Assembly (NCBI RefSeq): GCF_009931435.1
Contig: NZ_CP043414.1
DNA: 64,000 nt
Origin: Escherichia coli
Lineage (GTDB): Bacteria; Pseudomonadota; Gammaproteobacteria; Enterobacterales; Enterobacteriaceae
Reading direction: 5' to 3' (one strand)
Part shown: piece after piece, positions 12,695-64,000 of the stretch
How the letters are laid out: each line of letters opens with the position of its first letter
Numbering within the stretch: the first letter of the stretch is position 1
The notes under the pieces: generated by a model
Database searches by the model: none
The model's input: only the letters and a program-made list of their open reading frames with translations
What the model was told of the DNA's origin: nothing
Position numbers and translations under genes: made by a program

Positions 12695-13678
12695 ATGCCT
12701 AAAAAAATGAGAACAACCCGTAATCTATTATTAATGGCTACGCTATTAGGTAGCACACTATTTGCCAACGCTGCGGAAAAAGAAATGACCATTGGTGCAA
12801 TATACCTTGATACCCAGGGATATTACGCCGGAGTGCGCCAGGGCGTTCAGGATGCGGCAAAAGATTCTTCAGTACAGGTACAGTTAATTGAAACTAACGC
12901 CCAGGGCGATATTTCGAAAGAAAGTACCTTTGTTGATACCCTCGTGGCGCGTAATGTCGATGCCATTATTTTGTCGGCAGTGTCCGAAAATGGCAGTAGC
13001 CGCACCGTTCGCCGCGCCAGTGAGGCGGGTATTCCGGTGATTTGCTACAACACCTGTATTAATCAAAAGGGTGTCGATAAATATGTCTCGGCATATCTGG
13101 TTGGCGATCCGCTGGAATTTGGTAAAAAACTGGGTAACGCTGCCGCAGATTATTTTATTGCCAACAAAATTGACCAGCCGAAAATTGCTGTCATCAATTG
13201 CGAAGCCTTTGAAGTTTGTGTGCAACGACGTAAAGGGTTTGAAGAAGTATTAAAAGCCCGCGTTCCCGGCGCGAAAATTGTCGCTAATCAGGAAGGGACT
13301 GTTTTAGATAAAGCGATTTCTGTTGGTGAAAAACTGATTATCTCCACGCCAGATCTCAACGCCATTATGGGGGAATCGGGTGGAGCGACACTCGGCGCGG
13401 TAAAAGCGGTACGTAATCAAAATCAGGCTGGAAAAATTGCCGTTTTCGGTTCAGATATGACCACTGAAATTGCTCAGGAACTGGAAAATAACCAGGTGCT
13501 GAAAGCGGTAGTGGATATTTCCGGTAAGAAAATGGGCAATGCTGTTTTCGCGCAAACATTGAAGGTTATCAATAAACAAGCCGACGGTGAAAAAGTGATT
13601 CAGGTACCAATCGATCTCTATACCAAAACGGAAGACGGTAAACAGTGGCTGGCAACGCACGTTGATGGTCTGCCCTAA
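12695..13678 (+). CDS. yphF: ABC sugar transporter, periplasmic binding protein
   Basis: 327 aa with signal peptide; AGGAGG RBS upstream; LacI/ribose-binding-protein-like fold inferred from the sequence. Confidence 0.85.
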   Translation: MPKKMRTTRNLLLMATLLGSTLFANAAEKEMTIGAIYLDTQGYYAGVRQGVQDAAKDSSVQVQLIETNAQGDISKESTFVDTLVARNVDAIILSAVSENGSSRTVRRASEAGIPVICYNTCINQKGVDKYVSAYLVGDPLEFGKKLGNAAADYFIANKIDQPKIAVINCEAFEVCVQRRKGFEEVLKARVPGAKIVANQEGTVLDKAISVGEKLIISTPDLNAIMGESGGATLGAVKAVRNQNQAGKIAVFGSDMTTEIAQELENNQVLKAVVDISGKKMGNAVFAQTLKVINKQADGEKVIQVPIDLYTKTEDGKQWLATHVDGLP

Positions 13679-13700
13679 TCGCTGATTCGCAGAGGTCCCT

Positions 13701-15212: not shown

Positions 15213-15236
15213 TGAATTTTACCGAGGAACCTGAAG

Positions 15237-16235
15237 ATGTCTGCTTCGTCATTACCATTGCCGCAGGGCAAGAGCGTCTCGCTCAAACAATTTGTCAGTC
15301 GCCATATTAATGAGATCGGTTTGCTGGTGGTAATCGCCATTCTTTATCTGGTCTTCTCCCTGAATGCGCCTGGCTTTATCTCATTGAATAACCAAATGAA
15401 CGTGCTGCGCGATGCTGCCACCATCGGGATCGCCGCCTGGGCGATGACGCTGATTATTATCTCCGGTGAAATTGATGTCAGCGTTGGACCGATGGTGGCT
15501 TTTGTCTCGGTGTGCCTGGCATTTTTGCTGCAATTTGACGTTCCGCTGGCGATTGCTTGTCTGCTGGTGTTGCTGTTAGGCGCGCTGATGGGGACGCTGG
15601 CCGGCGTGCTGCGCGGCGTGTTTAACGTGCCCAGTTTCGTTGCCACGCTGGGGCTGTGGAGCGCCCTGCGCGGAATGGGGCTGTTTATGACTAACGCCCT
15701 GCCAGTGCCGATTGACGAAAACGAGGTACTGGACTGGCTGGGGGGACAATTTCTCGGTGTGCCAGTATCCGCGCTGATCATGATGGTGTTGTTTGCGCTG
15801 TTTGTGTTCATCAGCCGCAAAACCGCCTTCGGGCGCTCGGTTTTTGCTGTTGGCGGTAATGCGACGGCAGCGCAGTTGTGCGGTATCAACGTTCGTCGGG
15901 TGCGCATTCTTATTTTTACCCTTTCGGGATTATTAGCGGCGGTGACCGGCATTTTGCTGGCAGCTCGCCTCGGTTCTGGTAACGCAGGTGCGGCAAACGG
16001 TCTGGAGTTTGACGTCATCGCTGCGGTCGTGGTCGGCGGTACGGCACTTTCCGGCGGTCGCGGTTCCTTGTTCGGTACGTTGCTTGGTGTGCTGGTGATT
16101 ACGCTAATCGGTAACGGTCTGGTGTTGCTCGGGATTAACTCTTTTTTCCAGCAGGTGGTGCGCGGCGTCATCATCGTGGTGGCGGTTCTGGCGAATATCT
16201 TGCTGACCCAGCGAAGCAGTAAAGCGAAACGCTAA
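15237..16235 (+). CDS. yphD: ABC sugar transporter permease
   Basis: 332 aa, strongly hydrophobic multi-pass protein of the ribose/xylose permease type. Confidence 0.9.
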   Translation: MSASSLPLPQGKSVSLKQFVSRHINEIGLLVVIAILYLVFSLNAPGFISLNNQMNVLRDAATIGIAAWAMTLIIISGEIDVSVGPMVAFVSVCLAFLLQFDVPLAIACLLVLLLGALMGTLAGVLRGVFNVPSFVATLGLWSALRGMGLFMTNALPVPIDENEVLDWLGGQFLGVPVSALIMMVLFALFVFISRKTAFGRSVFAVGGNATAAQLCGINVRRVRILIFTLSGLLAAVTGILLAARLGSGNAGAANGLEFDVIAAVVVGGTALSGGRGSLFGTLLGVLVITLIGNGLVLLGINSFFQQVVRGVIIVVAVLANILLTQRSSKAKR

Positions 16236-16300
16236 ACCTTAACGCCCCTGGCGCGGGTGCGGCAGGGATGAAAATTAATCGTATTGTTAATGAGGGAATT

Positions 16301-17362
16301 ATGAAAACGATGCTGGCAGCTTATTTACCAGGAAATTCGACCGTCGATCTGCGGGAAGTTGCGGTGCCGACACCGGGGATTAACCAGGTACTGATTAAAA
16401 TGAAATCCTCCGGGATTTGCGGAAGCGATGTCCACTATATCTATCATCAACACCGCGCCACAGCGGCGGCTCCCGATAAACCGTTATACCAGGGATTTAT
16501 CAACGGTCATGAACCGTGCGGGCAAATTGTGGCGATGGGGCAAGGTTGTCGCCATTTTAAAGAGGGCGACCGCGTGCTGGTGTATCACATTTCTGGCTGT
16601 GGTTTTTGCCCGAACTGCCGTCGCGGTTTTCCTATCTCTTGTACTGGCGAAGGAAAAGCTGCTTACGGCTGGCAGCGTGACGGCGGTCATGCTGAATATC
16701 TGCTGGCGGAAGAAAAAGATCTGATCCTCCTGCCGGATGCGTTGAGCTACGAAGATGGTGCGTTTATCAGTTGTGGCGTTGGCACAGCGTATGAAGGGAT
16801 TTTGCGTGGCGAAGTTTCCGGCAGTGATAACGTGCTGGTGGTCGGTCTGGGGCCGGTCGGCATGATGGCGATGATGCTGGCGAAAGGTCGCGGTGCAAAA
16901 AGGATCATCGGCGTTGATATGCTGCCGGAACGTCTGGCGATGGCGAAACAGTTAGGGGTGATGGATCATGGTTATTTAGCAACCACTGAAGGTCTGCCGC
17001 AGATTATCGCCGAACTTACCCACGGCGGCGCGGATGTTGCGCTCGATTGTTCCGGTAATGCCGCAGGTCGCTTACTGGCTTTGCAATCCACCGCTGACTG
17101 GGGACGCGTGGTTTACATCGGAGAAACCGGAAAAGTCGAGTTCGAGGTTAGCGCCGACCTGATGCACCATCAACGGCGGATTATTGGCTCCTGGGTGACC
17201 AGTTTGTTCCATATGGAAAAATGTGCCCATGATTTGACTGACTGGAAACTGTGGCCGCGTAACGCCATTACCCACCGCTTCACGCTGGAACAGGCAGGTG
17301 ATGCCTATGCGCTGATGGCGAGCGGCAAATGCGGGAAAGTTGTGATTAACTTCCCGGATTAA
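16301..17362 (+). CDS. yphC: Zn-dependent alcohol/polyol dehydrogenase
   Basis: 353 aa from the ATG at 16301 (GAGGGA RBS); GHEPCG zinc motif and GxGxxG Rossmann motif (VVGLGPVG). Confidence 0.85.
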   Translation: MKTMLAAYLPGNSTVDLREVAVPTPGINQVLIKMKSSGICGSDVHYIYHQHRATAAAPDKPLYQGFINGHEPCGQIVAMGQGCRHFKEGDRVLVYHISGCGFCPNCRRGFPISCTGEGKAAYGWQRDGGHAEYLLAEEKDLILLPDALSYEDGAFISCGVGTAYEGILRGEVSGSDNVLVVGLGPVGMMAMMLAKGRGAKRIIGVDMLPERLAMAKQLGVMDHGYLATTEGLPQIIAELTHGGADVALDCSGNAAGRLLALQSTADWGRVVYIGETGKVEFEVSADLMHHQRRIIGSWVTSLFHMEKCAHDLTDWKLWPRNAITHRFTLEQAGDAYALMASGKCGKVVINFPD

Positions 17363-17373
17363 GGAGTCAGCGG

Positions 17374-18246
17374 ATGACCATCTATACCTTATCTCACGGG
17401 CCGCTAAAGCTGGACGTTTCTGACCGGGGCGGCGTCATCGAAGGCTTCTGGCGTGACGTGACGCCGCTCTTACGTCTCGGTAAAAAAAGCGGTGTGGCAA
17501 CCGATGCCTCTTGTTTTCCGCTGGTGCCGTTTGCAAACCGGGTGAGCGGCAACCATTTTGTCTGGCAGGGGCGTGAGTATCAACTGCAACCGAATATTGA
17601 ATGGGATGCGCACTATCTGCACGGCGACGGCTGGCTGGGCGAGTGGCAATGTGTCTCGCGCAGCGATGATAGCTTGTGTCTGGTGTATGAACATCGCAGC
17701 GGTGTTTATCACTATCGGGTAAGTCAGGCGTTTCATTTAACGGCAGATACGCTGACGGTGACGCTCTCTGTCACCAACCAAGGGACAGAGACGCTGCCAT
17801 TTGGTACCGGCTGGCATCCTTATTTTCCGTTGTCACCACAAACGCGGATTCAGGCGCAGGCGAGCGGTTACTGGCTGGAGCGGGAGCAGTGGCTGGCGGG
17901 GGAGTTTTGCAAGCAGCTACCGCAGCAGCTGGATTTCAACCAGCTCGCGCCGTTGCCGCGCCAGTGGGTAAACAATGGCTTTGCCGGATGGAATGGTCAG
18001 GCCCGCATCGAGCAGCCGCAGGAGGGTTATGCCATCATCATGGAAACGACGCCGCCGGCACCGTGTTATTTCATCTTTGTTTCCGATCCGGCGTTTGATA
18101 AAGGATATGCGTTTGATTTCTTCTGTCTGGAACCGATGAGTCATGCGCCGGATGACCATCATCGCCCGGAAGGAGGTGACCTCATTGCGCTTGCGCCGGG
18201 GGAATCAACAACGTCAGAGATGTCGTTGCGGGTTGCGTTACTGTAA
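17374..18246 (+). CDS. yphB: Aldose 1-epimerase (mutarotase) family protein
   Basis: 290 aa; K-12 synteny and family recognition. Confidence 0.8.
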   Translation: MTIYTLSHGPLKLDVSDRGGVIEGFWRDVTPLLRLGKKSGVATDASCFPLVPFANRVSGNHFVWQGREYQLQPNIEWDAHYLHGDGWLGEWQCVSRSDDSLCLVYEHRSGVYHYRVSQAFHLTADTLTVTLSVTNQGTETLPFGTGWHPYFPLSPQTRIQAQASGYWLEREQWLAGEFCKQLPQQLDFNQLAPLPRQWVNNGFAGWNGQARIEQPQEGYAIIMETTPPAPCYFIFVSDPAFDKGYAFDFFCLEPMSHAPDDHHRPEGGDLIALAPGESTTSEMSLRVALL

Positions 18247-18254
18247 TTTATAAA

Positions 18255-18291
18255 ATGCCGGATAAGGCGTTCACGCCGCATCCGGCATCTT
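18255..18291. repeat. REP element
   Basis: atgccggataaggcgttcacgccgcatccggcat fits the REP consensus. Confidence 0.6.
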
Positions 18292-18293
18292 TC

Positions 18294-18716
18294 CTAACGC
18301 CGATCGAGAGAAATTGCCCCCGGCCCGGTAATTGCCAACAGCAGGAATGCGCCAGCGATACTGACATTCTTCCAGAAATTAATCATATTTGGCCCAACCG
18401 CATCGCCGGTCATATCCCAGTAATGGTGACCAATCACCGCCGTACCCAGCGTGTAGAAAATAAACAGCACCGCCAGCGGACGGGTGAAAAAGCCAAGCAC
18501 GATTAAAATCGCGGCGGGCACTTCCATAACTACCGCAATAATCGCTGCCAGCATCGGCATTGGCGCGCCCAGCGAGGCCATATATTGGACCGTACCGTCA
18601 AAGCCCATCATTTTGGGAAAACCAAAAATAATGAAAATTAAGACCACGGCGATACGGGCAATTAATAACAAAACGGGGCGTGCAACACCAAAATCAAAAT
18701 AACGTAGTGAGTTCAT
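18294..18716 (-). CDS. yphA: DoxX-family inner membrane protein
   Basis: 140 aa from [10 protein letters not shown] (AAGGGA RBS); hydrophobic; the ORF track extends 15 codons further upstream. Confidence 0.8.
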
Positions 18717-18812
18717 AACCAATCCCTTTGCAAGATAATGTGATTTAAACGTAATACACACTCTGGCACCTCGCCACGCCCCAGGAGTTGAGATATTCGC
18801 TAATTATCCTGG

Positions 18813-20024
<1,212 letters not shown>

Positions 20025-28740: not shown

Positions 28741-29478
28741 ATGCTGCAAAATATTCGAATTGTGCTGGTGGAGACGTCACACACCGGTAATATGGGTTCT
28801 GTTGCCCGTGCCATGAAAACAATGGGCTTAACCAATCTGTGGCTGGTTAATCCACTAGTGAAACCTGACTCCCAGGCGATTGCTCTGGCAGCAGGGGCCA
28901 GCGATGTGATTGGTAATGCTCACATTGTCGATACACTCGACGAAGCGTTAGCCGGTTGTAGCCTGGTGGTTGGCACCAGTGCACGCTCGCGCACGCTGCC
29001 GTGGCCGATGCTCGACCCGCGCGAATGCGGTTTGAAAAGCGTCGCTGAAGCGGCAAATACGCCGGTGGCACTGGTTTTTGGTCGTGAGCGTGTCGGCTTG
29101 ACCAATGAAGAGTTGCAAAAGTGCCATTATCATGTCGCCATTGCCGCTAACCCGGAATACAGTTCGCTGAACCTGGCGATGGCTGTTCAGGTTATTGCCT
29201 ATGAAGTGCGCATGGCCTGGCTGGCGACTCAGGAGAACAGCGAGCAGGTTGAACATGACGAGACGCCGTATCCGCTGGTCGATGATCTGGAACGTTTTTA
29301 CGGTCATCTTGAACAAACGCTGCTGGCAACCGGTTTTATCCGTGAAAACCATCCGGGGCAGGTGATGAATAAGCTACGTCGTCTGTTTACCCGTGCGCGC
29401 CCGGAAAGCCAGGAGTTGAATATCCTGCGCGGGATTCTGGCTTCTATTGAGCAGCAGAATAAAGGTAATAAGGCCTGA
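28741..29478 (+). CDS. trmJ: tRNA (cytidine/uridine-2'-O)-methyltransferase TrmJ
   Basis: 245 aa SpoU/TrmH-family methyltransferase; K-12 synteny upstream of iscR. Confidence 0.9.
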
Positions 29479-29507
29479 GGGCTAAGCCAGATAAGTGCAC
29501 GGACGGT

Positions 29508-29545
29508 CCCCTCGCCCCTTCGGGGAGAGGGTTAGGGTGAGGGGA
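29508..29545. repeat. GC-rich imperfect palindromic intergenic element
   Basis: tcccctcgcccc ttcg gggagaggg ttagggtgagggg: nested inverted repeats in the trmJ-iscR spacer; family not confidently identified. Confidence 0.3.
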
Positions 29546-29645
29546 ACAGGCCAGCGCTAATGCGAATAATTGCCCTCAACCCGCTCATGGTCTGGAAGGA
29601 CAACAGGTACAAACGCCACGATAAAAAAATGGCACTGAAGGTTAA

Positions 29646-30267: not shown

Positions 30268-30277
30268 TTTAACCGTC

Positions 30278-30390
30278 CTGTTTCGTGTTGCATCTGCGTT
30301 GACTGCACATACTCACTCCGGTCACTTACTTATGTAAGCTCCCGGAGATTCGTAAGTTTGTCAACTTGCTGAAACCCGAAACAGTTAGGT
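30278..30390. repeat. ERIC/IRU-like imperfect palindrome in the iscR-iscS spacer
   Basis: Reverse complement reads GAATCTCCGGGAGCTTACATAAGTAAGTGACCGGAGTGAG, close to the ERIC core GTGAATCCCCAGGAGCTTACATAAGTAAGTGACTGGGGTGAGCG; flanked by the inverted repeat ctgtttcg ... cgaaacag. Confidence 0.55.
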
Positions 30391-30507
30391 TAAAGATAAC
30401 AAGATATTAGAATCAGGCCGGGGCGTATCGCGCTCCGTAAACACGGTCGTACATCCAGCCGGTAGCCTGGTTCCTTGCATTGAGTGATGTACGGAGTTTA
30501 TAGAGCA

Positions 30508-32152: not shown

Positions 32153-32476
32153 ATGTCGATTACACTGAGCGACAGTGCAGCAGCGCGAGTAAATACCTTT
32201 CTGGCTAACCGCGGCAAAGGGTTTGGCCTGCGTCTGGGTGTGAGAACCTCCGGATGTTCAGGTATGGCTTATGTACTGGAATTTGTTGACGAACCGACGC
32301 CGGAAGACATCGTGTTTGAAGACAAAGGCGTGAAAGTCGTGGTCGATGGCAAAAGCCTGCAATTTCTGGACGGTACGCAACTGGATTTCGTAAAAGAAGG
32401 CCTGAACGAAGGGTTTAAATTTACCAACCCGAACGTCAAAGATGAGTGTGGTTGCGGCGAAAGCTTCCACGTTTGA
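32153..32476 (+). CDS. iscA: Fe-S cluster insertion protein IscA
   Basis: 107 aa from [13 protein letters not shown]; C-terminal CGCGESF motif. Confidence 0.95.
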
Positions 32477-32571
32477 TGCGCATACCGATAACCCCACCGT
32501 GGTCAGCTGCGCGTGGGGTTTGTTTTACCTGATTCGTCGTTATTGCGGCGGATCGCAGCCCTGAGAATGTT

Positions 32572-33087
32572 ATGGATTACTTCACCCTCTTTGGCTTGCC
32601 TGCCCGTTATCAACTCGATACCCAGGCACTGAGCCTGCGTTTTCAGGATCTACAACGTCAGTATCATCCTGATAAATTCGCCAGCGGAAGCCAGGCGGAA
32701 CAACTCGCCGCCGTACAGCAATCTGCAACCATTAACCAGGCCTGGCAAACGCTGCGTCATCCGTTAATGCGCGCGGAATATTTACTTTCTTTGCACGGTT
32801 TTGATCTCGCCAGCGAGCAGCATACTGTGCGCGACACCGCGTTCCTGATGGAACAGCTGGAGCTTCGCGAAGAACTGGACGAGATCGAACAGGCGAAAGA
32901 TGAAGCACGGCTGGAAAGCTTTATCAAACGTGTGAAAAAGATGTTTGATACCCGCCATCAGTTGATGGTTGAACAGTTAGACAACGAGACGTGGGACGCG
33001 GCGGCGGATACCGTGCGTAAGCTGCGTTTTCTCGATAAACTGCGAAGCAGTGCCGAACAACTCGAAGAAAAACTGCTCGATTTTTAA
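32572..33087 (+). CDS. hscB: Co-chaperone HscB (J-domain protein)
   Basis: 171 aa; HPD motif in QRQYHPDKF. Confidence 0.9.
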
Positions 33088-33103
33088 TTTCTGGAAGCTA
33101 AAC

Positions 33104-34954
33104 ATGGCCTTATTACAAATTAGTGAACCTGGTTTGAGTGCTGCGCCGCATCAGCGTCGTCTGGCGGCCGGTATTGACCTGGGCACAACCAACTCGCTGG
33201 TGGCGACAGTACGCAGCGGTCAGGCCGAAACGTTAGCCGACCATGAAGGCCGTCACCTGCTGCCCTCTGTTGTTCACTATCAACAGCAGGGGCATTCGGT
33301 GGGTTATGACGCGCGCACTAACGCAGCGCTTGACACCGCCAACACCATTAGTTCTGTTAAACGCCTGATGGGGCGCTCGCTGGCTGATATCCAGCAACGC
33401 TACCCGCATTTGCCTTATCAATTCCAGGCCAGCGAAAACGGCTTGCCGATGATTGAAACAGCAGCGGGATTGCTGAATCCGGTGCGCGTTTCTGCGGACA
33501 TCCTCAAAGCACTGGCGGCGCGGGCAACTGAAGCCCTGGCAGGCGACTTGGATGGTGTCGTTATCACCGTTCCGGCGTACTTTGACGATGCCCAGCGTCA
33601 GGGCACCAAAGACGCGGCGCGTTTGGCTGGGCTGCATGTTCTGCGCTTGCTTAACGAACCGACCGCTGCGGCTATCGCCTACGGACTGGACTCCGGTCAG
33701 GAAGGCGTGATCGCTGTTTATGACCTCGGTGGCGGGACGTTTGATATTTCCATTCTTCGCTTAAGTCGCGGCGTGTTCGAAGTGCTGGCGACCGGCGGTG
33801 ATTCCGCGCTCGGCGGCGATGACTTTGACCATCTGTTAGCAGATTACATTCGCGAACAGGCGGGCATTCCTGACCGTAGCGATAACCGCGTTCAGCGTGA
33901 ACTGCTGGATGCCGCCATTGCGGCCAAAATCGCGCTGAGCGATGCGGACTCTGTGACCGTGAATGTTGCGGGCTGGCAGGGTGAAATCAGCCGTGAACAA
34001 TTCAATGAACTGATCGCGCCATTGGTAAAACGAACCTTACTGGCTTGTCGTCGTGCGCTGAAAGACGCGGGCGTTGAGGCTGACGACGTACTGGAAGTGG
34101 TGATGGTTGGTGGTTCTACCCGCGTGCCGCTGGTGCGTGAACGGGTGGGTGAATTTTTCGGTCGTCCACCGCTGACTTCCATCGACCCGGATAAAGTCGT
34201 CGCTATTGGCGCGGCGATTCAGGCGGATATTCTGGTGGGTAATAAGCCGGACAGCGAAATGCTGTTGCTTGATGTGATCCCGCTGTCGCTGGGCCTGGAA
34301 ACCATGGGCGGCCTGGTGGAGAAAGTGATCCCGCGTAACACCACAATTCCGGTGGCGCGCGCCCAGGATTTCACCACCTTTAAAGATGGTCAGACGGCGA
34401 TGTCTATCCATGTAATGCAGGGTGAGCGTGAGCTGGTGCAGGACTGCCGCTCGCTGGCGCGTTTTGCGCTGCGTGGTATTCCGGCGCTACCGGCTGGCGG
34501 CGCGCATATTCGCGTAACGTTTCAGGTCGATGCTGATGGTCTTTTGAGCGTGACGGCGATGGAGAAATCCACCGGCGTTGAGGCGTCTATTCAGGTTAAA
34601 CCGTCTTATGGTCTGACCGACAGTGAAATCGCTTCGATGATCAAAGACTCAATGAGCTATGCCGAGCAGGACGTAAAAGCCCGTATGCTGGCTGAACAAA
34701 AAGTAGAAGCAGCGCGTGTACTGGAAAGTTTGCACGGCGCGCTGGCTGCTGATGCCGCGCTGTTAAGCGCCGCAGAACGTCAGGTCATTGACGATGCTGC
34801 CGCTCACCTGAGTGAAGTGGCGCAGGGCGATGATGTTGACGCCATCGAACAAGCGATTAAAAACGTAGACAAACAAACCCAGGATTTCGCCGCTCGCCGC
34901 ATGGACCAGTCGGTTCGTCGTGCGCTGAAGGGCCATTCCGTGGACGAGGTTTAA
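33104..34954 (+). CDS. hscA: Hsp70-type chaperone HscA
   Basis: 616 aa from [10 protein letters not shown]; Hsp70 signatures IDLGTTNS and DLGGGTFD. Confidence 0.95.
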
Positions 34955-54267: not shown

Positions 54268-54384
54268 TCGTCTCTGTCGTTCACTTTGAAAACGGCTCCT
54301 GGACAGGGGCCGTTTTCCTGTTTTTAACAACGACACGAATATAGCGTGCGTTGTCTGATGATTTATAAAAATGAGGCTTTAAAC

Positions 54385-55857
54385 ATGGTACCTGTGGTCG
54401 CGCTTGTCGGGCGCCCTAACGTAGGAAAATCCACGTTATTTAACCGTCTAACTCGCACCCGAGATGCGCTGGTTGCGGATTTCCCGGGTCTGACTCGTGA
54501 CCGTAAGTACGGTCGTGCGGAAATTGAAGGCCGCGAGTTTATCTGTATTGATACCGGCGGGATTGACGGAACAGAAGACGGTGTAGAAACCCGCATGGCG
54601 GAACAGTCGCTGCTGGCGATTGAAGAAGCGGACGTCGTACTGTTTATGGTGGATGCGCGCGCGGGCCTGATGCCTGCGGATGAAGCGATTGCTAAACATC
54701 TGCGCTCCCGCGAAAAACCGACCTTCCTGGTGGCAAACAAAACCGATGGTCTGGATCCGGATCAGGCCGTTGTTGATTTCTATTCGCTCGGTTTAGGTGA
54801 AATCTATCCTATCGCCGCGTCTCACGGTCGTGGCGTATTAAGTCTGCTGGAGCACGTGCTGTTGCCGTGGATGGAAGATATCGCACCACAAGAAGAAGTG
54901 GATGAAGACGCTGAATACTGGGCGCAATTTGAAGCAGAAGAAAACGGCGAAGAAGAAGAGGAAGATGACTTTGACCCGCAAAGTCTGCCAATCAAACTGG
55001 CGATAGTGGGTCGTCCTAACGTCGGTAAGTCGACACTCACTAACCGTATCCTTGGCGAAGAACGCGTCGTGGTTTACGACATGCCGGGCACTACGCGTGA
55101 CAGTATCTACATTCCAATGGAACGCGATGGGCGTGAGTATGTACTCATTGACACTGCGGGCGTACGTAAACGCGGCAAAATCACCGATGCGGTAGAGAAA
55201 TTCTCCGTAATCAAAACATTGCAGGCGATTGAAGATGCCAACGTGGTGATGTTGGTGATTGATGCTCGCGAGGGTATTTCCGATCAGGATCTCTCCTTAC
55301 TGGGCTTTATTCTCAATAGTGGGCGCTCACTTGTGATTGTAGTGAACAAGTGGGACGGCCTGAGCCAGGAAGTGAAAGAGCAAGTAAAAGAGACGCTGGA
55401 CTTCCGTCTGGGCTTTATCGACTTCGCCCGTGTGCATTTTATCTCTGCATTACACGGCAGCGGCGTTGGTAACCTGTTTGAGTCAGTACGTGAAGCGTAT
55501 GACAGCTCCACCCGTCGCGTGGGTACGTCAATGCTGACGCGTATCATGACCATGGCGGTTGAAGATCACCAGCCGCCGCTGGTTCGCGGGCGTCGTGTGA
55601 AGCTGAAATATGCCCACGCCGGGGGTTATAACCCGCCAATTGTGGTGATTCATGGCAACCAGGTGAAAGACCTGCCTGATTCCTATAAGCGTTATCTGAT
55701 GAACTACTTCCGCAAGTCTCTGGACGTGATGGGTACGCCGATTCGTATTCAGTTCAAAGAAGGGGAAAACCCATATGCGAACAAGCGTAACACCCTGACG
55801 CCGACCCAGATGCGCAAGCGTAAGCGTTTGATGAAGCATATTAAGAAAAGTAAGTAA
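54385..55857 (+). CDS. der: Ribosome-associated GTPase Der (EngA)
   Basis: 490 aa from [16 protein letters not shown]; two G domains (GRPNVGKST twice) separated by an acidic linker; the ORF track extends the frame to 54346. Confidence 0.95.
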
Positions 55858-55919
55858 TCACTTATCTGGTTTCCCTTTCCAAACGGAGAGGGAAACTGAA
55901 CAACAGGCGAGGAGTATTT

Positions 55920-56135
55920 ATGGAACTCAACTGCCCAACCTGCCATAACCCTCTCGAACGCAACGGTGAAACTGCCCACTGTGCAACTTGTGCCAAAGAT
56001 TTCACCATTCAGGCGCTTTGTCCTGACTGCCATCAGCCATTACAGGTGTTAAAAGCTTGTGGTGCAGTAGATTATTTCTGCCAGCATGGGCACGGTTTAA
56101 TATCCAAAAAGCGCGTTGAATTTATTGTTGCTTAA
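55920..56135 (+). CDS. yfgJ: Small Cys-rich zinc-ribbon-like protein
   Basis: 71 aa with CPTC ... CATC ... CPDC ... CQHGH motifs; K-12 synteny after der. Confidence 0.8.
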   Translation: MELNCPTCHNPLERNGETAHCATCAKDFTIQALCPDCHQPLQVLKACGAVDYFCQHGHGLISKKRVEFIVA

Positions 56136-56326
56136 TATTATTTAAATATATGGTGTAATCATTTGTATTCATAATATAAATGATTGCATCCTATTTTATT
56201 TGTTGAAACGCAAATGTAAGTGAGCGAAATCACTGTGTTATAAATTTAAGATTATATTTAGTTTTCCTGGCGTGCCTTTCTGAATAATCTGGAATAGAAT
56301 ATTAGAGCTAATTTTAAGCATTATTA
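56136..56326. other. AT-rich core/accessory junction and probable sinH promoter region
   Basis: About 190 bp markedly AT-rich compared with flanking coding DNA; lies where K-12 has the short yfgJ-xseA spacer. Confidence 0.5.
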
Positions 56327-58519
56327 ATGTCACAGGGGATGTGCATGCTGCGATGGAAACGCTGTATTATGCTAACATTTATCTCTGGAGCTGCTTTTGC
56401 GGCTCCAGAGATAAATGTTGAGCATAAAGAATCGTTACCTGATTTAGGTAGTCAGGCCGCACAACAGGAAGAGCAAACTAACAAGGGTAAATCGCTAAAA
56501 GAGCGTGGTGCCGATTACGTCATTAACTCTGCCACGCAAGGGTTTGAAAACCTCACACCCGAGGCGCTGGAGTCCCAGGCCAGAAGCTATCTGCAAAGTC
56601 AAATTACCTCTACGACACAATCTTATATTGAGGATACACTCTCCCCCTACGGTAAGGTCCGAACGAATCTTTCTCTTGGTCAGGGCGGCGATCTGGATGG
56701 CAGTTCCATCGACTATTTTGTTCCCTGGTATGATAATCAAACTACTGTTTATTTCAGCCAATTTTCTGCACAACGAAAAGAAGATCGTACGATCGGGAAT
56801 ATTGGGCTTGGTGTAAGACATAATTTTGATAGATGGTTATTGGGTGGAAATATATTTTATGATTATGATTTTACCCGTGGGCATCGCCGTTTAGGTTTAG
56901 GTGCCGAAGCCTGGACTGATTATTTAAAATTCTCTGGCAACTATTATCATCCGCTTTCTGACTGGAAAGACTCCGAAGATTTCGATTTTTATGAGGAGCG
57001 TCCTGCGCGCGGTTGGGATATTCGCGCCGAAGCCTGGCTACCTGCTTACCCGCAGCTTGGCGGTAAAATCGTTTTCGAACAGTATTACGGTGATGAAGTC
57101 GCGCTTTTTGGCACCGATAATCTGGAGAAAGATCCCTTCGCCGTCACGCTGGGTGTGAAATACCAGCCCGTACCGCTCATTGCCGTAGGAACGGATTTCA
57201 AAGCCGGCACTGGCGATAATACCGATCTTTCTGTTAACGCAACGCTGAACTACCAGTTTGGCGTCTCGCTCAAAGACCAGCTTGATCCTGACAAAGTAAG
57301 CGCGGCTCACTCGCTCATGGGCAGCCGTCACGACTTTGTTGAACGTAACAACTTTATTGTTCTGGAATACAAAGAGAAAGATCCCCTCGATGTCACTTTG
57401 TGGCTGAAAGCTGATGCGACGAATGAACATCCCGAGTGCGTGATTAAAGATACGCCAGAAGCAGCCATCGGGCTGGAAAAATGTAAGTGGACCATTAACG
57501 CGCTCATTAATCATCATTACAAAATCGTTGCTGCCTCCTGGCAGGCGAAAAACAATGCTGCACGTACGCTGGTGATGCCGGTTATCAAAGAAAATACGCT
57601 TACCGAAGGGAACAACAATCACTGGAATCTGGTGCTGCCTGCCTGGCAGTACAGCTCTGATAAAGCCGACCAGGAAAAACTCAATACCTGGCGGGTACGC
57701 CTGGCGCTGGAAGATGAAAAAGGCAATCGGCAGAACTCCGGCGTGGTGGAAATTACCGTTCAGCAGGACCGTAAAATTGAGCTCATTGTTAACAACATCG
57801 CCAATGTACCGGATGAGAACAATCACAGCCACGAAGCCAGCGCGCAAGCGGATGGTGTAGATGGTGTCGTCATGGATCTCGACGTTACCGATAGCTTTGG
57901 CGACAACACTGACCGTAACGGTAATGTCTTGCCGCAGGATAATCTCAGCCCGCAGCTGTTTGATGCCAACGATAAAAAAGTGACGCTGACGAATAAACCC
58001 TGCACCACCGAAGTGCCGTGCGTTTTTATCGTCAAACAAGATAAAGAAAAGGGGACCGTTACGCTCTCCAGTACGTTGCCCGGCACTTTCCGCTGGAAGG
58101 CGAAAGCCGCCCCTTATGATGACAGTAACTATGTTGACGTAACGTTCCTGGGTTCTGACATCGGCGGGCTGAATGCTTTTATCTACCGCGTTGGTGCAGC
58201 TAAGCCCGTCAATCTTATCGGCAACAAAGAACCGTTGCCTCTCAATAGCCGCTATCGCTTTGTGCTGTGGCGCGACGCTAACAAAGACGGCGTGTTCCAG
58301 CTTTCTGAGAAGCTCACTGACGATGAGATGAAACAGTATGACTATCAGTGGGAATTCACGGGGCATAGCGTAAATGGCAATACCGGTGCGCAAACCAATA
58401 CCACGAACGTCGATATAGAGATCCCGGCAACCAACAAGGAAGCGGCAGCAAAGTTTAGTGCCCAGGTAACCGATGGCGTGCAGGGATACGGTTTGCAGGT
58501 CAATTACAGCAAGAAATAG
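56327..58519 (+). CDS. sinH: Intimin/invasin-family outer membrane protein (inverse autotransporter)
   Basis: 730 aa; signal peptide ending AFA; beta-barrel-like segment with aromatic-rich strands (GWDIRAEAWLPAYPQLGGKIVFEQYYGDE); in-frame alternative starts at 56339 and 56345. Confidence 0.7.
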   Translation: MSQGMCMLRWKRCIMLTFISGAAFAAPEINVEHKESLPDLGSQAAQQEEQTNKGKSLKERGADYVINSATQGFENLTPEALESQARSYLQSQITSTTQSYIEDTLSPYGKVRTNLSLGQGGDLDGSSIDYFVPWYDNQTTVYFSQFSAQRKEDRTIGNIGLGVRHNFDRWLLGGNIFYDYDFTRGHRRLGLGAEAWTDYLKFSGNYYHPLSDWKDSEDFDFYEERPARGWDIRAEAWLPAYPQLGGKIVFEQYYGDEVALFGTDNLEKDPFAVTLGVKYQPVPLIAVGTDFKAGTGDNTDLSVNATLNYQFGVSLKDQLDPDKVSAAHSLMGSRHDFVERNNFIVLEYKEKDPLDVTLWLKADATNEHPECVIKDTPEAAIGLEKCKWTINALINHHYKIVAASWQAKNNAARTLVMPVIKENTLTEGNNNHWNLVLPAWQYSSDKADQEKLNTWRVRLALEDEKGNRQNSGVVEITVQQDRKIELIVNNIANVPDENNHSHEASAQADGVDGVVMDLDVTDSFGDNTDRNGNVLPQDNLSPQLFDANDKKVTLTNKPCTTEVPCVFIVKQDKEKGTVTLSSTLPGTFRWKAKAAPYDDSNYVDVTFLGSDIGGLNAFIYRVGAAKPVNLIGNKEPLPLNSRYRFVLWRDANKDGVFQLSEKLTDDEMKQYDYQWEFTGHSVNGNTGAQTNTTNVDIEIPATNKEAAAKFSAQVTDGVQGYGLQVNYSKK

Positions 58520-58574
58520 GGTCGGCGCCATGGCTGATCGGGCCACCGCTGAATATTAATCAAGGAGAGTGTTT

Positions 58575-59567
58575 ATGAAACCTGATATGAAACGTGGCCT
58601 GACAAAAGTCGCGCTCGCGTTGATGCTGGCTGGATACTGTGCCGTACCAGCCGCTATGGCGGAAGATGCCGCCTGGGTCGCCAGTGGAGCGACCGCTGAA
58701 TTCGAAGGGACTATACCCTGGCTCTATCGCGAAGGGGGGAATGCCACGATTAACTCGGAAGATGCGGATCACATTAAAGTGACGTCTGATGGTAAAGGGA
58801 CCCGCCCTGCAGGTAGCGAGACGGATAAACGCCTTTACTCAGGGGATACCATCACGCTGGGATGGGATATCGGCGATACCGAAGGGGATGTTGATGATGG
58901 TCCCGCAGGCATTGATGCGAAAACGACGGCCACTATCAAATGGTACAGCTACAGCAATAATGCGGGTGGCGATAAAACGGAGCTGACCGCAGCGGCAGGC
59001 AAGACGAGTTATAAACTCACTGATGACGATCGTGGGCGTTATATCGGTGTTGAAATCCAGCCCATCACCCAGACCGGTAATCCCTTCGAGGGAACGTCGC
59101 TGACTCTGCTGGATATTTCAACGGCCAGCGGTGGCGGCAGCGATACGGACAATGTCGATCCCGGCCCGGTTGTGAACCAGAATCTGAAAGTTGCCATCTT
59201 CGAGAAAGGCACCACTACCAACCTTATCGGTGGTAACACGGCCATTGCGCTTAATAAAACGTATGTGGCCAAACTGTACTCGGATGAAAACCAGAACGAT
59301 AAATACGACGCAGGTACGGATATGGACGTTACCGCTAACTATGACTTTGCATGGGTCTTTAACGGTAACAGTAAACAACTTGCTGCGGCGGGCGGTATTG
59401 CTAATGCCAGCTTCGATAACAATGACATTGTTATCCCGCAAACTAACGAAGAAGCAAGAACCAGCCTTAATGGTAGTGACCGTAATGGTAAGAGTGGTCT
59501 TGCGATCCCGGCAAACGGCGACGGCGTTCAGGGCTATACGCTGTCTATCATTTACAAACACCACTAA
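58575..59567 (+). CDS. sinI: Secreted protein of unknown function, SinI/SivI-like
   Basis: About 330 aa from the ATG at 58575 (AAGGAG RBS); signal peptide ending AMA; position between sinH and ratA. Confidence 0.65.
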   Translation: MKPDMKRGLTKVALALMLAGYCAVPAAMAEDAAWVASGATAEFEGTIPWLYREGGNATINSEDADHIKVTSDGKGTRPAGSETDKRLYSGDTITLGWDIGDTEGDVDDGPAGIDAKTTATIKWYSYSNNAGGDKTELTAAAGKTSYKLTDDDRGRYIGVEIQPITQTGNPFEGTSLTLLDISTASGGGSDTDNVDPGPVVNQNLKVAIFEKGTTTNLIGGNTAIALNKTYVAKLYSDENQNDKYDAGTDMDVTANYDFAWVFNGNSKQLAAAGGIANASFDNNDIVIPQTNEEARTSLNGSDRNGKSGLAIPANGDGVQGYTLSIIYKHH

Positions 59568-59574
59568 TGCGCAC

Positions 59575-59613
59575 AACAGCATTCCCATATGGGAATGCTG
59601 TTTTCCGCCTGTT
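59575..59613 (+). terminator. Hairpin terminator downstream of sinI
   Basis: 12-bp stem aacagcattccc / gggaatgctgtt with loop atat, followed by a T-rich tail. Confidence 0.6.
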
Positions 59614-59676
59614 TTGCTTAGCGACGCGTTAAGCAAAACAGGTTGATGTTTTGTTTATCATGCTGGAGTTTTCTAC

Positions 59677-62600
59677 ATGTCGGTATGTCTGAAACCAGGG
59701 AAAATCATTATGCTTCTGGGCATGTTGGCAGCTTTTATGCTGTCTGACTTTGCACGGGCAGGGGCGGAATGGCAGACATATCCTGATTCTACAGGCGAGT
59801 TTAACGGAACCGTTCCTTTTGCCGACAGCGCCAGCGTACCCGTCTATCAGGGCAGTGTTCAGCTTAATCCTGCTGAATCTCATGATGTCGGGTTTTCTGC
59901 TAAACCGAATGAATTTAGTGTTGACGATGACGCTGCTAACCTGATTGTTGCTAATCCTCAGGACAATGAAGGCGACCAGTTTTCCACACCACCTGCGCTG
60001 CGCTGGGAAAATCAAACACCCCCTACCGTCAGCCTGGTGTGGGCCGATGCCGCCACGCCCGATGTGCCCCTTAACCCACAACCCATTGCTAACCGTAGCT
60101 TTTGCGCTCAGGGGCTCGCCGGACGCTCGCTGGTGGCCTGGCCGCAGATTGATGCGCAGCAAACCCTCCCACTGCTCTACCTGCTGACCTCGACCGGGTA
60201 TCCCTATGCGGGGACGGTGGCGCTGGTGGACCAGAAAGTGACCCTGAACATCGCGCCCGCGCAGGGCGATTTAATCTCGGTGAGCGCCAGCGGTTATAAC
60301 GAAACGATCGCGGCGGCAAAAACCACCGTTGGCGACACCATCACGCTCACCGTCACCACTAAAGATTGTCAGGGCAACGTCGCGGGTAATATTCCGTTTA
60401 TTATCAAACGTAAAGATGCTGAAAATCGCCAGGGGGCAGTGAATAATAGTGCGCCAGTGGTACTGGATAGCACCGAGTTAACGACGACGGCTACCGAATA
60501 CCATGGCACCTCTGATTCCAACGGCACGGCCACCATCACGGTGAGCCAACCGAACGGCCCTGGTGTCAAAACGCCACTGGTGGTCAGCATTTCCGGCATT
60601 GCGCAAACCAGCGAAACCGCAGTGATTTTTACCGTACTCACCAGCCCGGACGTGGCGCAGGCTACGATGTGGGGCCATATGGCGGAGACGGTAGAAGCCC
60701 ACGGTTACACCTTCAGTCGACCAAAGCTGGCGGCAGAAGTCAGCAATGAAAGCGCCACGGTTGTCGATCATAACGAAACCTGGTCCACCTTCACCTGGAG
60801 CGGCGCAGATAGCCACTGCACCGTGCTGCCCGGCATGCGCCACTTCGGCGCGCTGGCGACCGTTATCCCCACGTCGGTGCAGACAGCCCTTGGCTGGCCG
60901 ATGCAGGGGGATTATTACTGGTCATCGCTGGCGGGCACCACCGGGCAGCACCATGCGGCGGATGTCTCTAACCGTAGTGAAACGCAAAAGCCGGATAGCA
61001 CCCCGTTTCTTGTGAGCTGCGTGGATAAACCCGCGCCTGATGTCGAACCGAAAATCGTCCTTACGCCCGAAAACTATGATGATACGGCACAGGCGATGAA
61101 ATCGCAGGTGGGCGAAGACGCCACGATGCGTCTGACGATCACCGACAATAAAAATAACGATCAACCACTGGCGTATTACTACTTCTCGCTGCATCTGGAT
61201 GACGGCGTTAACCGCAAAAATCAAACCGATTCCGCCTGGGAAGCCCATCCGGTGCAGATTACTGGTGGTTCGAATTTACAACAGGTTGATGCTCACACCT
61301 ATGAAGGCATGACCGATGTCAACGGTCAGGCTTCGCTAACCCTGAGTCAGCCCGACGGCGCAGGCGTGAAAACCCATATCACGGCGAAAATGCGCAGCAA
61401 TTTTACGGCTACAGATGCCAAAGACGTGATTTTTACTGTGATCACCAGCCCGGACAGCGACAAGGCGCGGATGTGGGGCCATATGCGCGGCATTGTTGTA
61501 TCTGGCAGTCTGTTCAAACGCCCAGTGCTGGCGGATGAAACTGAGCATGAACTGGGATCGGTGCGGGAAAATGACGAAGACTGGGCGCTGTTCGATCAAG
61601 ACACCAGTATGCAGGCTGAATGCGGCGTCGGCCATACGCCACGTCAGAGTGGGCTGGAAAGCCTGTTTTCAGCCCATCCCGGTAACGCGATTGGCACTGA
61701 GTATGGCTGGCCCACCGCCCAACAGAGCTACTTAAGCGCGGTGGAGCAAGCCACGCATTCATCGGTGAATCTGGGGAACGGAAACGTCGACAGCTACTCC
61801 GGCTTTAAGCAGAATTACCTCTCCTGTTCGGGCAATGAGATGGTAGCGAAGGTTGAAGTCAGCACCGATCACGATATCACCCCTGGCAGCAAAGCGCAGG
61901 CCAAAGTAGGTGACACCATCGTGATGACCGTGCGTACGATTAACGCGCTCAATAATACCCCGGTACCCTTTACTGCATTCACCATTACCAAAGGCATGGG
62001 GTATAACCGAGCGGGGCTGGTGAGCGGGTTTGATGACCCGAGCAGCGGCGCAATCTCGATGAATGGCACGCAATACGGCACATCACAGCCGTCGATGGTC
62101 TACACAGGTACGACAGATGCACAAGGCGTGGCAACGGTCGAAATAGAGCAACCCCAGGGGGTGGGGTTAAGAACCGTGCTGAGCATTACGCCGGTCAATT
62201 CCCATCTACCAAATGCCATTAATTACAATGTTATTTTTACCACCCCAACCAGCCCGGATGTTAGTGGGGCGCAGATGTGGGGCCATATGGATGAAACGAT
62301 TACCGTTGATTCATTAACCTTTACCCGGCCTAAGCTGGCAGCAGAAATCGCCAGTCCGGATGGCACACTAACGGAAAAAAACGAAGTCTGGGCGCGCGTT
62401 AGCCAGGCCAGTACGGCCATTACCAGTAAAGGCGGTTGCGGAACCAATATGCTGCCGCGCCGCTCCCAGCTCAGTGCGCTTTATGACGCTAATAACGGTA
62501 ATGCGGTGCAAGCCACACACGGCTGGCCGACGCAGCGTCAGCCCTACTGGAGCAGTTCCCCCGCGGATTTAACGCCGCACAATTACACCATTGCCCTGGA

Positions 62601-64000
62601 TAACGGCGCACAGGCCATCGGCGGCGATACGCCGGTTTACGTCAGTTGCCTGACGACGGCGAACAAACCTGCCAGCAGCATTACGCTGGATGTGGTTGAT
62701 AACGCACAGTGGGCTGCCGGAAATAACGCGGCGAAGCTGAAAAAAGGCGAAACGCTACGGGTTAAGGTAACGGTAAAAGATGCGCAGGGTAATCCGCTCA
62801 CGGATATGCCATTTAAACTGAGTCGCGGAGACGGTTATACCCGCACGGGCGAAAAACATATTGCCGGTAGTGGCGATGCGCTGGTGGCACCGGTGGTGAT
62901 TAACAGTGGGCTGGCGGATGAAACGACGTTGAACGACACCGCGGGATTTTATACTGCCATGACCGGTAGCGACGGCAGCAAAATCCTCAATATTACCCGC
63001 CCGGATACTCACGGCACCAAAACGGCGCTGACGGCGACGTTGTATTCCGATCCAACAAAAAAAGACAGCCTGGATACAATCTTTACTGTGGTCACCAGCC
63101 CGGATAGTAGCAAAGCGAAAATGTGGGGGCATATGCCGGAAACGGTGACGGCTGCGGACGGTACGGTATTTAAACGCCCGCTGTTGTTGAAGGAACTGGC
63201 CTATCAGACTGGGCGAACATCGACGTCTGAAGACAATGAAAACTGGGCGTTGTTTAACATTAATTATGCGAGTTCTTCCACGACGTATAGTGGCTGTGGA
63301 ACCAACTATATTCCGACTCAAGCCGGTCTGACGTCACTGTTTGCTAATAATGCGGGCAACACCATGAAAACCGTGCAGGGCTGGCCGGTGGCAACACGCT
63401 ATTTGTCCAACACGTCCGACAACGGCAGCATGGAGCAGCGTAACTACAAGGCGGTAGATCTCAGCAATGGCACGAGTGCGGCAGTGTCATCAACGGCGCT
63501 GCAACTGCTGACCTGCCAGACCACGCCGGTAACCACGGTGGGCCAAATTCTGCTGGAAGCGGCAGATCCGGCGACGCTGGATACCACCTATAACGTGGTA
63601 AAAGCGAAAAAAGGCGAAGAATCCGTGGTGCGCGTCACCACCAAAGATACGCAAGGCAACCTGGTGGGCAATACGGCATTTATCCTGACGCGTGCCAACA
63701 GCGTGAGTCGGGCTAACGCATCAGCAACCGCGAGCGTGGGCGCGCTGACGGTGACGGATGCTTGGGGAAATACGCGAAATAATTTCCAGTCGACGAGTGA
63801 AACGATTTACGGCGTGACTGGTGCAGACGGGTCAACGACATTTACCCTGAAACAGGATAACAGTACCGGGTTAAGAACCGATCTCACGGCAAAACTGGAT
63901 ACGTCCAGCAGCGTCAAGGCGACGCTACCGGTGGTCTTTACTGTCGTGACCAGCCCGGATTCGCCAAAAGCGAATTTTTGGGGACATATGGCCGAAACGG
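59677..64000 (+). CDS. ratA: Giant modular secreted/surface protein, RatA/RatB-like (5' partial; continues past window end)
   Basis: Single open frame with no stop from about 59677 to 64000 (at least 1441 codons), not in the ORF track because it has no in-window stop; signal peptide; repeated modules with the motif [VI][VI]FT..TSPD......WGHM. Confidence 0.75.
60500..64000 (+). repeat. Tandem protein-coding modules within ratA (period about 804-855 nt)
   Basis: Anchor motif starts at about 60622, 61426, 62230, 63076 and 63931, giving 268, 268, 282 and 285 aa spacing; flanking residues diverge, so the duplication is old. Confidence 0.65.

Follow-up and report, generated by a model that had tools for sequence, protein, structure and literature searches.

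A sinH-sinI-ratA-like adhesin locus (ila locus) at the yfgJ/xseA site of a divergent Escherichia coli

In Salmonella, the CS54 island has the gene order xseA-shdA-ratB-ratA-sinI-sinH (Kingsley et al. 2003, as relayed by other papers), and the locus tags STM2512-2517 are consecutive (PMC3591323). The E. coli counterpart has been described as the ila locus (PMC12928451), in which sinH and sinI are co-transcribed (PMC12525524). The gene iatB, a synonym of sinH, undergoes LeuO-dependent activation; IatB is displayed on the cell surface, mediates biofilm formation and is present in 37 of 39 B2 strains, and in strain SMS-3-5 the native protein was undetected by Western blot despite a roughly 15-fold LeuO-raised transcript (PMC6714894). 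SinH is associated with ExPEC and is a protective vaccine antigen (PMC9937491); three Ig-like domains (PMC9937491) and surface display (PMC6714894) have been reported for its orthologues. In a second Salmonella system, ZirT-ZirS-ZirU, an inverse-autotransporter-like translocator with a barrel precedes secreted partners that lack one and have a passenger-like domain in common with it; this system has been proposed as the analogue of SinH, SinI and the Rat proteins (PMC4943183, PMC6714894), with SinH as translocator and its neighbours as substrates (PMC4943183).

The window analysed here is a stretch of 64,000 nucleotides of E. coli contig NZ_CP043414.1, and its positions 56136-64000 belong to the sinH-sinI-ratA-like adhesin locus known in E. 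coli as ila, which lies at the yfgJ/xseA site. The locus is thus already known, both from publication and from public annotation of the exact sequence under the same gene names, and is ordinary as a discovery. As a preliminary description of this DNA had proposed, gene order up to yfgJ is that of K-12: positions 1063-56136 are colinear at 94-95.5% identity, the first 1062 bases lying outside the K-12 stretch that was fetched. The blastn match to MG1655, expected to end at yfgJ, has its last base at 56136, one base past the yfgJ stop codon, with none across 56136-64000; in a near-identical RefSeq genome (L001), which differs from the window at 3 positions over the overlapping 28.5 kb, alignment to MG1655 resumes only within xseA, 11.7 kb downstream. 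The 'short spacer' attributed to K-12 between yfgJ and xseA proved instead to be an overlap of the two stop codons by 4 bp. In L001 the island measures 11.7 kb and comprises three genes, identically named in the RefSeq PGAP annotation; xseA follows the giant gene after a gap of 55 bp, so that the ratB and shdA homologues sought beyond the window are absent and the rat gene is the sole one.

The left border of the island is yfgJ (55920..56135, + strand), the last K-12-colinear gene, which encodes a 71-aa zinc-ribbon protein according to its open reading frame and the PGAP annotation of L001. Beyond it lies the AT-rich junction that had been noticed earlier, together with the sinH upstream region (56136..56344, + strand); GC content drops to 35-41% across 55800-56400, and an AT-rich terminator-like hairpin (56152-56190) stands immediately 3' of yfgJ. 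A promoter scan returned no convincing sigma-70-like match on the + strand of 56136-56344 (4 sites were observed in the whole scanned region, versus 5.9 expected). No Rfam families were found, and the boundary is, as previously stated, free of integrase, IS and tRNA: the annotation of L001 contains no mobility gene, and a tRNA scan found nothing.

The gene sinH (56345..58519, + strand) encodes an intimin-like inverse autotransporter of 724 aa, identified by PGAP, NCBIfam, Pfam and PDB matches; the longest open reading frame (56327-58519) would give the 730 aa of the preliminary description, and both PGAP and the NCBIfam model place the start at 56345. The protein scores 1474 bits against the NCBIfam SinH equivalog NF033423 (model positions 1-730; curated full-length cut-off, 999 bits). 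Its likeness to intimin and invasin is borne out by a Pfam IAT_beta domain at residues 69-342 (E 2.4e-105) and by phmmer matches to invasin (4E1T, E 8e-74) and intimin (4E1S, E 1.6e-65) over residues 101-343, which correspond to the predicted 12-stranded outer-membrane beta-barrel (56645..57373, + strand). A Sec signal peptide can be read before the barrel as MLRWKRCIMLTFISGAAFA followed by APE. By these sequence criteria SinH is a type Ve (inverse) autotransporter of the intimin/invasin family. Of the two features that a Pfam scan had been expected to reveal, the barrel is present, and no Big or other Ig domain exceeds the threshold in the passenger, residues 343-730. The last passenger domain (58208..58507, + strand) is homologous to the C-terminal domain of SinI (SinH 628-727 versus SinI 217-329; 31% identity, BLASTP E 1e-9), and the NCBIfam cross-hits between the two proteins are reciprocal; this homology was noted before for Salmonella (Kingsley 2003, as cited in PMC4943183).

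The gene sinI (58575..59567, + strand) begins 55 bp past the sinH stop and encodes an autotransporter-associated protein of the SinI family (NCBIfam NF040711; 377 bits, cut-off 165); PGAP selects the start at 58575, giving 330 aa, within a longest frame of 332 aa (58569-59567). The protein had been described as secreted and 330 aa long; the length stands, and the word 'secreted' reflects only its signal peptide. SinI carries no barrel, no significant Pfam domain and no PDB relative recognizable by sequence. An AlphaFold model built on a 14-sequence alignment is of moderate confidence (mean pLDDT 67) and has two beta-rich regions, for which Foldseek returned no PDB match at E <= 0.001 and only generic Ig/FnIII sandwiches. 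Used as a search profile, the SinI alignment gave 144 matches at E <= 0.001; among the 120 listed, those with names are SinI-family or hypothetical proteins of Enterobacteriaceae and Leminorella, and none is a ZirS/ZirU-type relative.

The third gene leaves the window in an open frame that runs from 59677 to the window end, as the earlier reading of a giant modular protein had it. The window holds its 5' part (59677..64000, + strand), the first 1441 of 2694 codons, and the full-length gene occupies 24178-32262 of L001. It is identified by NCBIfam PRK15316, Pfam and PDB 5N40: the protein scores 5410 bits against the RatA-like equivalog PRK15316 (residues 3-2694 on model positions 1-2683; cut-off, 3870 bits over full length) and matches the 'putative invasin' 5N40 at E 2e-30. 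The earlier designation ratA holds at the level of the RatA-like family; scores against the Salmonella RatA model PRK15315 (2015 bits; cut-off, 3700) and RatB model PRK15314 (2238 bits; cut-off, 4079) fall below threshold, and judged by these models the giant protein is an equivalog of neither. A signal peptide and an N-terminal region of about 200 aa are followed by pairs of BIg21 and InvE_AD domains, nine such modules in the full gene, the window ending within the fifth (Pfam). Identity between modules is 24-44%, and Tandem Repeats Finder (TRF) detects no DNA tandem repeats in the gene; the modules are old. Neither SinI nor the RatA-like protein contains a barrel or any other outer-membrane export device recognizable by Pfam.

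The mature N-termini of SinI (EDAAWVASGATAEFEGTIPW; 58662..58721, + strand) and of the RatA-like protein (59761..59820, + strand) have in common a motif of about 25 residues, L-K-x-G-x-W-Q-x5-T-G-x-[IF]-x-G-T-x-P, which is possibly new. It occurs in two flavours that co-vary between SinI and Rat inside one locus; an earlier survey called Rat N-termini 'highly divergent' (PMC4943183). A search for the motif in the partners of distant SinH-like barrels yielded, in Thorsellia and Aeromonas, a loose 'I-x-G-x-x-P' discerned by eye; these candidates were rejected, the SinI motif HMM being negative.

Two conserved hairpins, also possibly new, lie between sinI and the rat gene. Directly 3' of sinI, an intrinsic terminator-like hairpin with a T-run (59575..59606, + strand) is evident from RNA folding (59566-59660, -46.1 kcal/mol, z-score -8.7) and from its conservation in 15 loci with compensatory changes; the second hairpin (59607..59643, + strand) shows covariation in its outer stem and belongs to no Rfam family. 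A terminator at this place fits a sinH-sinI operon.

A mechanism for the locus can be proposed. SinH would enter the periplasm by means of its Sec signal peptide, lodge its N-terminal 12-stranded barrel in the outer membrane and expose its C-terminal passenger, some 380 residues long, at the cell surface, where it would serve as an adhesin. The 2694-aa RatA-like protein and SinI, each with a signal peptide and no barrel, would also be exported to the periplasm, and SinH may then help them to reach or decorate the surface, as ZirT does for ZirS and ZirU; by this analogy, SinH-aided delivery is the most likely route. The biofilm formed with IatB alone, in the absence of the downstream gene (PMC6714894), would fit a locus of three independent genes, in which SinH would act as an adhesin by itself, SinI would be a periplasmic protein or a chaperone, and the RatA-like protein would be either periplasmic or exported to the surface by another route, their clustering reflecting only the shared ancestry of Ig-like domains. 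The conserved terminator between sinI and the rat gene also favours independence, as do the differing phenotypes of Salmonella mutants; a summary table in PMC3680342 attributes no role in virulence to ratA and sivI. We nevertheless regard independence as rather unlikely, since at least five genera keep the three-gene order despite SinI and Rat identities of only about 40% from genus to genus, the two proteins lack a barrel or recognizable outer-membrane export device of their own, they have a position-specific N-terminal motif in common, and ZirT/ZirS/ZirU offer a precedent (PMC4943183). More specific than SinH-aided delivery, and doubtful to a greater degree than independence of the genes, is the conjecture that SinH, SinI and Rat form a dedicated two-partner-like export system in which the N-terminal motif is a docking or export signal recognized by SinH. 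If true, it would provide the first handle on the delivery of barrel-less adhesins by an inverse autotransporter; in any case, the motif gives the old conjecture of export of neighbouring proteins by SinH a definite feature that experiments can address.

Among 5426 complete E. coli genomes, 1682 (~31%) cover at least 80% of positions 55500-64000 and 1749 match 57000-64000; only 1 of 5435 places is on a plasmid. The present allele is rare (57000-64000 at >=95% identity in only 15 of the 5426). The same chromosomal site is occupied in E. whittamii and other Escherichia lineages, Pseudocitrobacter, Citrobacter and Superficieibacter; a short E. albertii contig has yfgJ upstream and shows nothing further on that side. 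In Salmonella the site is the same on the der-yfgJ side: S. enterica contig L026 has the order der-yfgJ-sinH-sinI-ratA-next rat gene. This genus was found by protein search and contig look-up, an exact peptide-word scan of contigs for SinH having missed it. The gene yfgJ is unusually divergent, at 87% nucleotide identity to B2-type E. coli and with K-12 below the 80% coverage filter, and among E. coli both yfgJ and xseA have diverged much further than either bamB or guaB. Complete alleles have also been swapped between genera.

Over most of its length the allele matches its Pseudocitrobacter vendiensis counterpart at 96-100% identity, an observation that is possibly new. Contamination or misassembly was considered and rejected as its source: the 98-kb P. 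vendiensis contig has Pseudocitrobacter-type bamB and der to the left of the island, at 92-94% nucleotide identity to congeners (a comparison that refers to the left side, too little of guaB having been fetched on the right).

The absence of the locus from K-12 with a clean junction, the AT-rich left border and the patchy distribution (~31% of E. coli genomes) could suggest that site-specific recombination recently placed a classical mobile genomic island at the yfgJ/xseA junction. Against such an insertion, the locus shows neither an integrase, an IS or a tRNA nor flanking repeats (no direct or inverted repeats of at least 9 bp at the two island junctions); the same site is used in Salmonella, Citrobacter, Pseudocitrobacter, Superficieibacter and several Escherichia species; and divergence reaches the core flanks der, yfgJ and xseA, as homologous exchange predicts. 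Recent insertion of a mobile island is thus largely refuted, and we consider it very improbable; the 'accessory island' of the preliminary description is apt for absence from K-12 and is not to be taken as a mobile element. The locus looks like an old syntenic one, lost or swapped by flanking recombination: whole alleles would be gained, lost or replaced through homologous recombination in der and yfgJ on one side and xseA and guaB on the other. Recombinational exchange is indicated because the divergence of yfgJ and xseA exceeds that of bamB and guaB, and by the cross-genus swaps. The emphasis differs from that of the review literature, in which the locus is 'horizontally acquired' (PMC12525524). 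Taken as a whole, the explanation that combines the identity of the three genes, SinH as a surface adhesin, probable delivery of SinI and the RatA-like protein, and recombination in the flanks is one in which we place high confidence. On this reading the locus provides a clear-cut case of an 'island' kept and swapped purely by flanking homologous recombination, and the strong divergence of SinH passenger alleles, exchanged even between genera, bears on SinH-based vaccines.

Compared with intimin and invasin, SinH has a homologous beta-barrel and the same topology of N-terminal barrel and C-terminal passenger; it differs from intimin in having no recognizable periplasmic domain such as LysM (Pfam calls nothing before the barrel), and from both in its short passenger without Pfam Big domains or a C-type lectin tip and in being co-encoded with barrel-less partner proteins. 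In InvE, the two-domain module forms the tip of the passenger of an inverse autotransporter. The RatA-like protein corresponds to nine copies of this Yersinia pseudotuberculosis module (BIg21 + InvE_AD; PDB 5N40), with the difference that they form a free-standing protein of 2694 aa without a barrel. Partner secretion was shown for the Zir system, and we infer it for SinI and Rat by analogy.

The match to CS54 claimed by the preliminary description holds for the position adjacent to der and yfgJ and for the sinH-sinI-rat order, with SinH 73% identical; CS54 has ratB and shdA, whereas the locus here lacks both and has a single rat gene, SinI is only 41% identical, and Rat is only 42% identical to RatA, the first 779 residues of the RatA-like protein being 48% identical to the product of the next Salmonella rat gene. 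The E. coli ila locus of ExPEC strains (such as CFT073, UTI89, ST131 and SMS-3-5), the non-K-12 counterpart that had been expected, carries these three genes, identically ordered, at the yfgJ-xseA site. Amino acid identity is 90% for SinH, 68% for SinI and 65% for the RatA-like protein relative to an O4:H5 strain, and 96%, 94% and 86%, respectively, relative to the E. coli genome Ecol_656, which carries the closest common allele. Compared with the common ila locus, the locus described here is a rarer allele, on the backbone of a divergent E. coli host that is 94-95.5% identical to K-12.

The DNA is colinear with K-12 from position 1063 to position 56136 at 94-95.5% identity, which places its host in a fairly divergent branch of E. 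coli. Two indel differences from K-12 flank iscR, a gene that is itself 99% identical to K-12 in surroundings that are 95.5% identical: one lies upstream (approximately 29,475-29,599), and the other is a 128-bp insertion between iscR and iscS (approximately 30,268-30,396) that contains GTCACTTACTTATGTAAGCTCC, which we take to be the core of an ERIC/IRU repeat. K-12 gene order extends, as the preliminary description had it, through der (54346-55857) and yfgJ (55920-56135, + strand), after which an AT-rich junction was correctly recognized (35-41% GC at 55,800-56,400, compared with 46-52% in sinH and 53-61% in the giant RatA-like gene). The three open reading frames beyond it, all on the + strand, are placed as claimed: sinH, encoding 730 amino acids (56327-58519); sinI, encoding 332 amino acids (58569-59567); and a RatA-like gene that starts at 59677 and remains open to the end of the window. 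Because this long frame leaves the window, the + strand ORF list has no entry of any length past 59,650. Reading past the window end relied on E. coli 2020CK-00188, owing to its near-identity to the window: it is a 100% match to 55500-64000 in a megablast search of 5,426 complete E. coli genomes, and differs at 3 positions across an overlap of 28.5 kb. The blastn alignment of MG1655 to this genome stops one base beyond the yfgJ stop codon (window position 56136) and restarts 11.7 kb further on, within xseA, approximately 60 nt in from its 3' end. The short spacer that K-12 was thought to have before xseA does not exist: yfgJ and xseA converge there, with stop codons that overlap by 4 bp. Of the genes expected beyond the window, xseA follows 55 bp past the RatA-like gene, and the island therefore consists of three genes, without ratB and shdA.

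The predicted intimin/invasin-like character of the first protein is borne out by an inverse-autotransporter barrel at residues 69-342 (Pfam IAT_beta, E 2.4e-105), by matches of residues 101-343 to beta-domain structures solved for invasin (4E1T, E 8e-74) and for intimin (4E1S, E 1.6e-65), and by a score of 1474 bits against the NCBI SinH equivalog model (cut-off 999); both the NCBI model and PGAP place the start at 56345, giving 724 amino acids. The second protein, described beforehand as secreted, has a typical signal peptide and belongs to the SinI family (377 bits; cut-off 165). A Pfam search of SinI found no significant domain; its C-terminal ~110 residues share homology with the final passenger domain of SinH (E 1e-9), as PMC4943183 already records for Salmonella. 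The third protein, 2694 amino acids long in 2020CK-00188, passes the 'RatA-like protein' equivalog PRK15316 (5410 bits; cut-off 3870) and falls under the cut-offs for Salmonella RatA (2015 versus 3700 bits) and RatB (2238 versus 4079 bits). It consists of a signal peptide, an N-terminal region of ~200 residues, and nine pairs of Pfam BIg21 and InvE_AD domains, the same module that has been solved in Yersinia InvE (PDB 5N40, E 2e-30). These modules are 24-44% identical to one another, and a search of the gene for tandem repeats at the DNA level found none.

The mature N-termini of SinI (58662-58721, in the form EDAAWVASGATAEFEGTIPW) and the RatA-like protein (59761-59820, +) share a motif of ~25 amino acids, W-x5-7-T-G/A-x-[IF]-x-G-T-x-P, which is common to SinI and Rat in all 14 loci read and is retained in further SinI-family members, including that of Leminorella. 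Profile-profile alignment of the two N-terminal regions with hhalign gives 88% probability (E 3e-6, 79 columns), and an HMM built from 29 SinI columns alone, searched against 1,271 six-frame ORF segments, recovers at E < 1 only Rat N-termini besides SinI (E 2.8e-6 to 0.38). Other forms of the motif are ..LKxGQWQ..TGTIQGTVPW and ..LKGGQWQ..AINGTxP, and two flavours co-vary between SinI and Rat within a locus across five genera. The motif could serve as a common docking or export signal; alternatively, it could be no more than a homologous first domain that gene conversion has homogenised. It is absent from the section on co-encoded substrates of the survey that proposes Rat and SinI as substrates of SinH (PMC4943183).

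Between sinI and the RatA-like gene, a terminator-like hairpin with a T-run (59575-59606) lies directly 3' of sinI and is followed by a second hairpin of 17 bp (59607-59643; core TTTGCTTAGC...GTTAAGCAAA). Folded jointly, they reach -46.1 kcal/mol (z-score -8.7), and both are kept in 15 loci of five genera, 14 of their 25 pairs having changed in a compensatory way; no Rfam family matched them. A strong hairpin with a T-run after sinI fits a sinH-sinI operon, and sinI is reported to be co-transcribed with sinH (PMC12525524).

At least 80% of 55500-64000 is covered in 1,682 of the 5,426 complete E. coli genomes, and 57000-64000 is matched in 1,749. With one genome scanned per species, the order der-yfgJ-sinH-sinI-rat-xseA-guaB recurs in Escherichia whittamii, further Escherichia lineages, three Pseudocitrobacter genomes, Citrobacter sp. 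MGH106 and two Superficieibacter genomes; a short contig of E. albertii carries yfgJ-sinH-sinI-rat before it ends. Short contigs encoding SinH (93-99% identical) also occur in a 'Collinsella sp.' MAG (L009, 2 kb) and a 'Rhizobium wenxiniae' assembly (L017, 426 bp), almost certainly as enterobacterial contamination of these public assemblies. As previously noted, neither integrase nor insertion sequence is annotated in the island, and a tRNA search found none there; an Rfam search found no family, and the two junctions have no direct or inverted repeat of at least 9 bp in common. A self-mobile island is a very unlikely explanation, because the same site is occupied in several genera and divergence reaches into the flanking genes. 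We read the island instead as a probably old locus that is lost, or replaced blockwise, by homologous recombination in its conserved flanks.

Divergent core stretches adjoin the island on both sides: the 3' half of der and yfgJ (54,700-56,135) and xseA (32,318-33,685 in 2020CK-00188). In the 3' half of der, the window strain's identity to K-12 declines to 91-92%, from 98%, and the final ~20 codons of xseA are strongly unlike K-12. Between K-12 and a B2-type strain, nucleotide identity is 89% in xseA, 99% in bamB and 95% in guaB; among K-12, B2-type strains and the window strain it is 87-90% in xseA and 97-99% in bamB, and the two B2-type strains are 96% identical in xseA. This pattern suggests linked recombination or hitch-hiking with island alleles. 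From approximately 56,900, in the middle of sinH, up to where the giant gene ends, most 200-nt windows are 96-100% identical to the type strain of Pseudocitrobacter vendiensis (CPO20170097T), in a comparison followed to 33,700 in 2020CK-00188. A few windows are at 90-95%, xseA is at about 93%, and a mosaic patch (~63,100-64,700) is only 69-80% identical; in the flanks, identity is 78% for bamB and 85% for der. These values point to a recent exchange of the island allele between genera. Since the window allele is nested in a series of graded identity within E. coli (100, 99.9, 98.2, ... 92.7, 89.5%) and identity in other Pseudocitrobacter is 70-84%, transfer was probably from Escherichia to P. 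vendiensis. Escherichia sp. MOD1-EC7003 has a Superficieibacter-like allele (sinH and yfgJ 87-90%, xseA 85%, to L011 and L016) in E. coli-like flanks (bamB 97% identical to K-12 and 77% to Superficieibacter), an apparent second inter-genus swap at the yfgJ-xseA locus. The motif, the P. vendiensis identity and the second swap may be new, and are offered as modest leads, not established findings.

The likeness drawn to the Salmonella CS54 island holds in part. A Salmonella enterica contig (L026) has der-yfgJ-sinH-sinI-ratA and then another rat gene, its SinH, SinI and Rat being 73%, 41% and 42% identical to those of the window; its ratA (13351-19551, SRR10822497) is called as two ORFs of 1182 and 883 amino acids, which suggests a frameshift or pseudogene. 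Unlike the Salmonella locus, in which STM2512-2517 are consecutively xseA, shdA, ratB, ratA, sinI and sinH (PMC3591323), the E. coli island lacks ratB and shdA, and its giant protein is neither RatA nor RatB by score. The sequence itself shows a barrel, signal peptides, a domain common to SinH and SinI, and adhesion modules in the giant protein; published work on orthologues supplies the surface display, the phenotypes in biofilm formation and adhesion, and the control by LeuO. SinI and the RatA-like protein, having neither a barrel nor another export device, would reach the surface via SinH, in line with the proposal in PMC4943183 that SinI and Rat-like proteins are SinH substrates by analogy with ZirT/ZirS/ZirU. 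SinH, as IatB, sits on the cell surface and promotes biofilms; LeuO activates it, and 37 of 39 B2 strains carry it (PMC6714894). It also protects as a vaccine antigen and is associated with ExPEC and with phylogroups B2, D, F and G (PMC9937491), and the three-gene cluster 'ila' is described as CS54-derived and as contributing to urinary tract infection (PMC12928451). Thus, with minor corrections, the observation is confirmed and its interpretation supported, and because the literature already covers the locus, the finding is the correct identification of a known three-gene system.
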